Positions 51,288 through 53,852 of a stretch of 64,000 bases of DNA are shown piece by piece (positions within the stretch are counted from its first letter, which is position 1; each line of letters opens with the position of its first letter). The translations under genes were made by a program, and so were the position numbers. Source of the stretch: Giardia intestinalis (taxonomy: Eukaryota). The stretch lies in assembly GCA_000002435.2 (NCBI GenBank), contig CM018792.1; one strand, 5' to 3'. A model generated the notes under the pieces. That model was not told the DNA's origin. It searched no databases and saw only the letters and a list, made by a program, of their open reading frames with translations.

Positions 51288-53852
51288 CTACTCGTTGTCC
51301 TCTGATGGCGGAGGCAGTGAGACTGGGGTTACATGGTTTTTGAAGTGTCTTCCTGCGATAGGTGCATCGTTTCCGAAGCTATTAGAAAGCAAAAGCCCGT
51401 TCCACACTGCAAACTCCGCTATCCTGCCAGTGAGATCTATAGAGCTTGTTATAGTAATTCGGGAGTCGGAATGTATATTCTTAAGCACCTTTTTCCACAA
51501 TATAAGCCGGATGACACGCGGGTAACTGGCTAAAAAGAGATCTCTAAGTTGCACGAGCGTCACTGCTGCGAATCCTGGAAGCTTTGCATCACCAGGCTTC
51601 GCCACCTGAAGCATATCTACCTTATAATCGTGGAGATATGTCTTGATGCGCCTTGCAATGTACCCAGCAATGACGTATACTCCTATCTTTGTTGCTATGT
51701 AGAGTGAGCCAGCAATGGATACCGTGCATTGAAGTATTTTTCCTAGAGCAGCAGCGGGATCTCTATGAAACCAAAACTTGAACTTGCATTCTAGACTAAA
51801 TCGTGGCAACGAGTGCGTGAAAACGTTTGTATTGGATAAAATATAGATGTATTGCTTATGCATGCAGTCCTGGAAGGAGTCATCTGAGTCACACTGGACT
51901 ACACTGCGTATATTTCTGGCTTCTTCCGGAAGACGGAACTTTATATTTGGTGGTAGATATACTTCATTGTCTGTTCCTTCGTGCAAAATAGCCTGTGTAA
52001 GAGCCTCAAGTACATCGTTTTGAAGGATATCAGTATAGGTTGTCACCAGATCCTTCAAGGAATCTGCGCTAAGTATGCCATTTGTGCTTGTTTGATTGAC
52101 CACCGAAAATATCAGTGAGTTGCGACGGAGAAATCTGCTGATGGTCCTAGTCTGTAGTAGAGGTAGACTAGTGTCCACTGTGATTTTGCGGCCTCTAGAC
52201 CTGCAAAACAGGCTGCCCTTGTATGCCTGAAGCTCATGATCAAGAGCCTGGAGAAGAGAAGATAGTTTTGTAGTCACCCCACTTGCTCGCTGGCAACGCA
52301 TACGCCTACGCAGAACAGGGGCGCGTGTCATAAAGCCATAGCTATACTGTATTTGAGATAAGCTATAGCTATCATCACCGTTGATGTCTGATGACCGTGA
52401 TGCAGCGTCACTCATATGTTTGTACGCACCTGGCATCCAGCGAGCCATGGCGTTGTTACCAATTGCACTGAAGAAGTTTCGTGCGGAAACAAAGGAGACT
52501 TGGGGGTAAAATGAATTATTGGAAGGGGCCCTTTGATAGCCAGGCATGCAAGACGTCAGGAGTCCACCTGAGCAGGTGCCAAAGGTCGGACATGGCTCTG
52601 TAATACCATACTGAGCAGATGTGTGTGTCAATGTCTCTGTGTATACCGGACCAGAGAAAATGCATGCGAAAAGTACGCTGATTACGTGCGAAATGACGGG
52701 TATCTGTGGCTTTACCGGGTCTGAGGCAAGGGAGAACAACTGATATGATACAACTAGTAAGACGAAAATGAAAGACAATCGAACTAACGTAGGATGTGAG
52801 TGTATGGTAGTCTTGAAATTATAGGCATTGTGTTCATCCTCGTACTGTTTGCCTTTATACAGTGGCTGTGTTTCTTGTAAGAGTGTGTCACGTCTCTTGG
52901 TTGATTTGTGTGTAAGATTCTTGTCTGGAACGTGCACGGTTGACCCACGGTGACTATGTACACTTCTCTCCAGCTGCACACGTCCATATGCAGTGTGAGA
53001 AGCATCCCTAGGTATAGATGATGATCCTATGTGAGGGTACGGGTTTGTAGGTGCCTCTATTCTGATGGTGGGGGTTTTGACCGGAAACTGCCCGGCACCT
53101 TCACTCTTGCACAACTCCTTCTGGCTCTCGACACGTTTTTCTTTACTTTTACTTCTGTGCCTCTCGCTACTTTTATGCTTTTTGGTTGTGTTCTTGGAAC
53201 TGTGCTTCATCTCTGCATGGACTTGCATCTGAGAGCTAGAGTGCTTATCCCTACCTTTATCTATATATGATGATTTGCGGAGCACAGACCTTGCTATCTC
53301 TTGTTGGTCAACAGGAGATACTGTCAGAGTTGTTTTAGATTTCTCAGTCTGAGACTTTCCATCTAGTTTAGAAGAACCAGTAGAAGGTGCTGAAGCTGTA
53401 CTATCCTTTCGCTCCCCTGGAGTCCGCTCAACTCCGTACGGATTTTTCATCCTTTTCAAAGGTGACACGGGCTTGGCAGCATCTACTTCGTTTTCACGGA
53501 CAAGTTGCTCATGTAATGCATAATCGTTGAAGGCTCCTGTGAAGTCAAAGGCAGACTGCGTGAGATCACCTCTCCCCACTTTGCTATAGTTTAAGTTCTG
53601 ATTTACGGCAACAAGCTGTTCATCGATAGCATCTACAAACCCTCCGATATCAAAAGATTCTGATTGCGGACGGCTTCGTGGCCCCCTACTAACAGTTCGT
53701 AAGTAGTTTGAGCGAAGCTGAGCAAACTGCTTTATTAGGGTCGCCTTGGTTGCGCGCTCCTCAGGGACTCCACCAAACTCGGTAATAGCCCTCTTGAGGT
53801 CAATGACACGGAGCCGAGATGGATCTGTGTTGAGGTAGTCGTTGGGGTCCAT
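51288..53852 (-). CDS. putative inner-nuclear-membrane protein: N-terminal HeH/LEM-like domain, two TM helices, C-terminal domain (Src1/Heh/Man1-like architecture)
   Basis: The N-terminus MDPNDYLNTDPSRLRVIDLKRAITEFGGVPEERATKATLIKQFAQL aligns with the Src1/Heh HeH consensus (DP..[LM]KV..LRRIL.E..V.FP...RK..L..LF). Hydrophobic helices at about aa 345-365 and 700-725. Basic/Ser-rich region between them. Confidence 0.4.
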   Translation of the reverse strand: MDPNDYLNTDPSRLRVIDLKRAITEFGGVPEERATKATLIKQFAQLRSNYLRTVSRGPRSRPQSESFDIGGFVDAIDEQLVAVNQNLNYSKVGRGDLTQSAFDFTGAFNDYALHEQLVRENEVDAAKPVSPLKRMKNPYGVERTPGERKDSTASAPSTGSSKLDGKSQTEKSKTTLTVSPVDQQEIARSVLRKSSYIDKGRDKHSSSQMQVHAEMKHSSKNTTKKHKSSERHRSKSKEKRVESQKELCKSEGAGQFPVKTPTIRIEAPTNPYPHIGSSSIPRDASHTAYGRVQLERSVHSHRGSTVHVPDKNLTHKSTKRRDTLLQETQPLYKGKQYEDEHNAYNFKTTIHSHPTLVRLSFIFVLLVVSYQLFSLASDPVKPQIPVISHVISVLFACIFSGPVYTETLTHTSAQYGITEPCPTFGTCSGGLLTSCMPGYQRAPSNNSFYPQVSFVSARNFFSAIGNNAMARWMPGAYKHMSDAASRSSDINGDDSYSLSQIQYSYGFMTRAPVLRRRMRCQRASGVTTKLSSLLQALDHELQAYKGSLFCRSRGRKITVDTSLPLLQTRTISRFLRRNSLIFSVVNQTSTNGILSADSLKDLVTTYTDILQNDVLEALTQAILHEGTDNEVYLPPNIKFRLPEEARNIRSVVQCDSDDSFQDCMHKQYIYILSNTNVFTHSLPRFSLECKFKFWFHRDPAAALGKILQCTVSIAGSLYIATKIGVYVIAGYIARRIKTYLHDYKVDMLQVAKPGDAKLPGFAAVTLVQLRDLFLASYPRVIRLILWKKVLKNIHSDSRITITSSIDLTGRIAEFAVWNGLLLSNSFGNDAPIAGRHFKNHVTPVSLPPPSEDNE

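Follow-up and report, generated by a model that had tools for sequence, protein, structure and literature searches.

A Src1/Lem2-type HeH-MSC protein of Giardia intestinalis behind the label Protein 21.6

The gene, its relatives and its annotation

The window, a 64,000-nucleotide stretch of Giardia intestinalis DNA, carries on its minus strand the complete coding sequence of an 854-residue protein (Table 1). An exact-sequence look-up identified the product as 100% identical to G. intestinalis WB XP_001706638.1 (UniProt A8BJR2), and both the open reading frame and the 45 N-terminal residues quoted in an earlier, sequence-only reading of this DNA proved exact. Homologue searches recovered full-length orthologues from other Giardia assemblages at 69–99% identity, together with a G. 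muris relative at 34% identity over 52% of the query; the locus is thus a real gene. The protein comprises an N-terminal helix-extension-helix (HeH) domain, a basic disordered linker of about 300 residues, two membrane spans around a Cys-rich domain, and a basic C-terminal winged helix, and every element of the domain order that had been proposed from the sequence is present.

Table 1 Features of the coding sequence, with positions in the window and in the protein
Feature	Residues	Position	Strand	Basis or remark
Complete CDS	1–854 + stop	51288..53852	minus	ATG start; ORF list, exact-sequence look-up
N-terminal HeH/LEM-like domain	8–47	53712..53831	minus	hhalign, shuffle control, AF2 fold
Basic Ser/Lys/His-rich linker	56–355	52788..53687	minus	composition; predicted disordered, nucleoplasmic
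Linear motif 1, DLTQSAFDFTG	96–106	53535..53567	minus	pattern search in aligned relatives
Linear motif 2, SPLKRMKNPYGVERTP	130–145	53418..53465	minus	pattern search in aligned relatives
Most basic linker cluster, KNTTKKHKSSERHRSKSKEKRV	220–241	53130..53195	minus	+7, top 20-aa window
TM1	357–377	52722..52784	minus	KD 2.02; AF2 helix aa 341–377; hhalign
Lumenal (perinuclear-space) domain, predicted	378–706	51735..52721	minus	between TM1 and TM2
MSC signature Cys motif, PCPtfgtCsgGlltsCmpGY	420–440	52533..52595	minus	hhalign
TM2	707–729	51666..51734	minus	KD 1.59; within AF2 helix aa 699–750
Winged-helix part of MSC domain	762–818	51399..51569	minus	
C-terminal tail	819–854	51291..51398	minus	ends LPPPSEDNE, conserved in all Giardia species

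An exhaustive representative search yielded 12 proteins only, all diplomonad-like, and a second, word-indexed homologue search with the family alignment added no further distant relatives. As direct HMMER matches were confined to diplomonad-like proteins, the ties to other eukaryotes rest on Pfam and hhalign comparisons. Searches of PDB sequences with phmmer and hmmsearch returned nothing significant; the full protein produced a single low-complexity chance match and the C-terminal profile produced zero matches.

The sequence-only reading had assigned the gene to the Src1/Lem2/MAN1-type proteins of the inner nuclear membrane and had implied that this was new. The assignment is correct, but it was already known. 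Five of the seven matches of the first search, namely the five G. intestinalis-group orthologues, carry a precomputed assignment of the MSC (Man1-Src1p C-terminal, PF09402) domain; the isolate DH entry ESU36855.1 (V6TIT5), which shares a 90%-identity cluster with the WB protein, is titled ‘Inner nuclear membrane, Man1-Src1p-C-terminal domain protein’, and A8BJR2 is among the MSC-domain proteins in Koreny & Field 2016. The entries for WB, P15 and G. muris and one Hexamita entry are labeled ‘Protein 21.6’ instead, and in the WB reference this label hides the Src1/Lem2-type identification from readers of the annotation. The literature that we searched contained no experimental work on the localisation, DNA binding or interactions of this protein. 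Our additions are modest: the HeH domain, though divergent, now has statistical support; Hexamita inflata has homologues; and two short motifs are conserved among diplomonads.

Membrane spans, MSC domain and C-terminal region

With 38.5 bits, the Giardia protein exceeded the curated Pfam cutoff of 29.7 for MSC (E 1.2e-9; aa 419–811, profile positions 52–328 of 337); among the relatives, Hexamita P0016 reached 49.2 bits and P0014 reached 31.8 bits. Profile-profile comparison by hhalign aligned TM1 and the PCP-Cys motif with published non-opisthokont MSC proteins (95.6%, E 1.2e-8), TM1 falling on the TM1 of those proteins. The protist reference sequences were taken from an OCR'd supplement, and we replaced the letter ‘O’ in them by ‘Q’. 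Sequences from Naegleria, Phytophthora, Tetrahymena and Perkinsus display the same CPCP....C..G...C motif, and the pairing of two spans with a lumenal CPxxxxCxxGxxxxC motif, a trait of the HeH-MSC family, is present in the Giardia protein.

As had been described, two hydrophobic helices stand about 340 residues apart on the Kyte-Doolittle (KD) scale (aa 357–377 and aa 707–729). Their hydrophobicity is kept in all ten relatives, with KD ranges of 1.92–2.90 for TM1 and 1.44–2.34 for TM2. Six cysteines (C421, C427, C435, C520, C550 and C689), likewise invariant in 10/10 relatives, all lie between the two spans, which fits an oxidising lumen. The lumenal loop, at about 330 residues, exceeds in length that of the yeast and human members.

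A third hydrophobic stretch, absent from the sequence-only description, occupies aa 384–402. Its KD value of 1.85 in the Giardia protein exceeds that of TM2, and were it a true span the membrane would separate the N-terminal from the C-terminal domain. In the relatives the hydrophobicity of the segment is not maintained (KD 0.54–1.88): it falls to 0.54–1.34 in segments that contain three to seven Pro/Gly residues, and in three relatives Lys, Arg, Glu or Asp is present; the AF2 helix at this position is only 13 residues long, and a third span would leave either the Cys-rich domain or the winged helix in the wrong compartment. Owing to its unconserved hydrophobicity, its Pro/Gly content and its charges, we do not count aa 384–402 as a membrane span, and we reject the three-span topology as highly improbable.

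Beyond TM2, the C-terminal domain spans 125 residues (aa 730–854), in line with the roughly 130 anticipated, and contains the winged-helix fold that is a further trait of the HeH-MSC family. This region scored 33.5 in hhalign comparison with published protist MSC proteins, against a shuffle maximum of 14.9, and bears an LRD..L...W..VL....D.RI signature. Residues 750–820 are net basic (10 Lys/Arg, 5 Asp/Glu), and this basic winged-helix region, the sole sequence-level sign of DNA or chromatin binding, offers a hint of such a function. The AF2 model of aa 340–854 had a mean pLDDT of 62 and a pTM of 0.39, with about a quarter of the model below pLDDT 50. Foldseek comparison of the N-terminal and C-terminal models with the PDB gave no match with E <0.001, and the matches listed did not include the solved winged helix of MAN1.

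The 36-residue tail that follows is modeled at pLDDT below 50, and L846, P847, P848, S850, E851 and D852 are invariant in 8/8 Giardia sequences. The tail matched no further Pfam domain and no RRM/UHM. As no RRM follows the winged helix, MAN1-type identity is ruled out, and the Giardia protein is of the Src1/Lem2 type.

The divergent HeH domain and the conserved linker motifs

The earlier proposal of an N-terminal HeH/LEM-like motif, for which Pfam searches had been suggested as a check alongside the MSC domain, fared differently from its MSC counterpart at the Pfam cutoff. The Pfam HeH model (PF12949) scored 12.1 bits against a curated cutoff of 28.9 and covered profile positions 1–15 of 35 only. 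Because the direct match fell under the cutoff, we turned to a profile-profile test, in which an alignment of 12 diplomonad-type N-termini was compared with bona fide HeH domains. The reference alignment included the Heh2 and Src1 N-termini, which were admitted only after scoring 61–63 bits with Pfam HeH. The comparison returned 94.2% probability (E 1.2e-7, score 37.3, 42 columns), whereas 200 column shuffles gave a mean of 8.4 and a maximum of 18.1. An AF2 model of the region (pLDDT 84.6) shows the expected arrangement, with a helix at aa 16–25, a 10-residue extension at aa 26–35 and a helix at aa 36–55, at pLDDT of about 90 over aa 16–55. By this route the HeH/LEM-like motif stands. A canonical LEM domain is excluded, since PF03020 gave no match at E up to 10 with either the full protein or the N-terminus; this absence fits the reported confinement of the LEM domain to Holozoa (Koreny & Field 2016).

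Could the likeness to HeH be generic, an independently acquired SAP-like or two-helix motif on an ‘MSC-only’ protein? Such proteins are the family members reported for most non-opisthokonts, and a 2018 survey saw HeH together with MSC outside opisthokonts in Naegleria only. The shortfall at the Pfam cutoff would fit this possibility, as would the top Foldseek matches, which were to SAP-like domains (MANF/CDNF, T4 endonuclease VII, HI1506 and the Rho N-terminus) at non-significant E values, and a weak SAP match in one relative. Against it, the profile-profile score beats every shuffle; the match takes in all 42 columns of the domain, the DP..L.V..L...I and K..LI..F signature among them, and occupies the extreme N-terminus as in Heh1 and Heh2; and HeH is the Pfam family matched by the most relatives (3/12, best E 0.0014). 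We consider a generic origin quite improbable. N-terminal profiles also found SAP/HeH-class matches among PDB sequences, all sub-threshold. The leading fold and PDB-sequence matches are all of the SAP/LEM/HeH class. As SAP, LEM and HeH form one fold class, functional inference would hardly be altered even by a generic origin. We therefore retain the HeH assignment, and the domain is predicted to be a nucleoplasmic DNA- or chromatin-binding module.

The long basic Ser-rich region that had been noted behind the HeH domain was borne out by composition (aa 56–355: 12.3% Ser, 9.7% Lys, 7.0% Arg; net charge +14). The linker is weakly conserved and varies in length among the relatives. Two linear motifs occur within it. 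Motif 1 was found by pattern in 9/13 aligned relatives, including Hexamita P0016, and P0009 carries a variant missed by the pattern, DLTQAAFDFTG; the motif has no Pfam or PDB match. Motif 2, with the pattern [ST]P.[KR]..[KR]......E[RK]TP, was found in 10/13 aligned relatives, always about 33 residues past motif 1. It contains two Ser/Thr-Pro sites, of which S130-P-L-K matches the CDK consensus. The most basic cluster of the linker lies about 115 residues ahead of TM1 and, judged by its composition, is a candidate nuclear localisation signal.

A proposed role at the nuclear envelope

Placed beside known systems, the Giardia protein most resembles S. cerevisiae Src1/Heh1 and Heh2 and S. pombe Lem2 in having the same domain order, a similar overall length, and neither a canonical LEM domain nor an RRM. 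It differs from these proteins in that its HeH domain is too divergent for the Pfam model, in that the motifs at aa 96–106 and 130–145 have no counterpart in them, and in being encoded by a single gene instead of a paralogue pair. Human LEM2 (LEMD2) and MAN1 (LEMD3) share with it the MSC domain, two spans and a C-terminal winged helix; unlike them, the Giardia protein has no LEM domain proper, and where MAN1 has an RRM/UHM it has the short tail. By the account of Koreny & Field 2016, the LEM-BAF link is restricted to Metazoa. Among protists, Naegleria D2V886, Dictyostelium Src1, Tetrahymena Lem2 and MicLem2, and Trichomonas XP_001299627 and XP_001313092 belong to the same family and have the same architecture, and the TM1 and PCP-Cys region and the winged-helix signature of protist MSC proteins align with those of the Giardia protein. 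The latter is about twice the length of the Trichomonas and Naegleria MSC proteins owing to its long linker and lumenal loop. A nuclear-envelope location has been shown experimentally for Dictyostelium Src1 and Tetrahymena Lem2.

Taken together, the protein is very probably an HeH-MSC nuclear-envelope protein of the Src1/Lem2 type, with a role that we infer from its family. Giardia is a diplomonad, as the sequence-only reading had guessed, and that reading describes diplomonads as binucleate and lamin-less. By analogy with characterised members, both termini would lie in the nucleoplasm and the Cys-rich loop in the perinuclear lumen; the HeH domain and the winged helix would bind DNA or chromatin directly and in this way anchor it at the envelope of each of the two nuclei, with neither lamins nor BAF involved. 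As in yeast Heh1 and Heh2, the long basic linker and its KKHK...RHRSKSKEKR cluster may promote passage through the pore and so bring the protein to the inner membrane. For the winged helix, docking of CHMP7, an ESCRT adaptor, is a further possible task, by analogy with LEM2 and Heh1. The step is uncertain, and it is weakened by the Giardia CHMP7, which is reported to be without a SNF7 domain and to reside at the ER and mitosomes.

Location bears on another account, in which the protein is a true MSC protein but not a chromatin tether, residing throughout the ER and the outer membrane, or else at pores, and acting in membrane or pore organisation. In Tetrahymena, Lem2 occupies both nuclear membranes and MicLem2 lies mainly at pores, so that a purely inner-membrane location should not be assumed for the Giardia protein; the usual partner of the family's winged helix, CHMP7, is in Giardia at the ER and mitosomes, and the enlargement of the lumenal domain, together with its six invariant cysteines, points to an important task in the lumen. 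Set against these points, conservation from Giardia to Hexamita extends to the HeH domain, the basic linker and the basic winged helix alike, and this is difficult to account for unless the protein has a nucleic-acid or chromatin partner in the nucleoplasm. We regard a non-tethering role as rather improbable and favor the chromatin-tethering Src1/Lem2-type reading.

More speculatively, motifs 1 and 2, which lie shortly behind the HeH domain and are conserved from Giardia to Hexamita, might form a diplomonad-specific docking module under cell-cycle phosphorylation control, a proposal that we hold to be unlikely. Such a module would link the envelope to a lineage-specific chromatin, pore or spindle-pole partner, and the winged helix would then have lost its ESCRT role, given that Giardia CHMP7 has no SNF7 domain. 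Yeast proteins of the Heh1/Heh2 type partner with Nur1, Lrs4-Csm1, Bqt4 and Chm7. The module would replace the lamin and BAF links of animals and the Nur1 and Bqt4 links of yeast, and the protein would offer an entry to the largely unknown nuclear-envelope network of a binucleate, lamin-less cell.

[quoted passage not shown] Its practical worth lies in an annotation correction and a ready experimental handle: behind the name ‘Protein 21.6’ stands what is very likely the single Src1/Lem2-type nuclear-envelope protein of Giardia, and with its domains, topology and motif positions mapped, experiments could be directed at the attachment of chromatin to the Giardia envelope.

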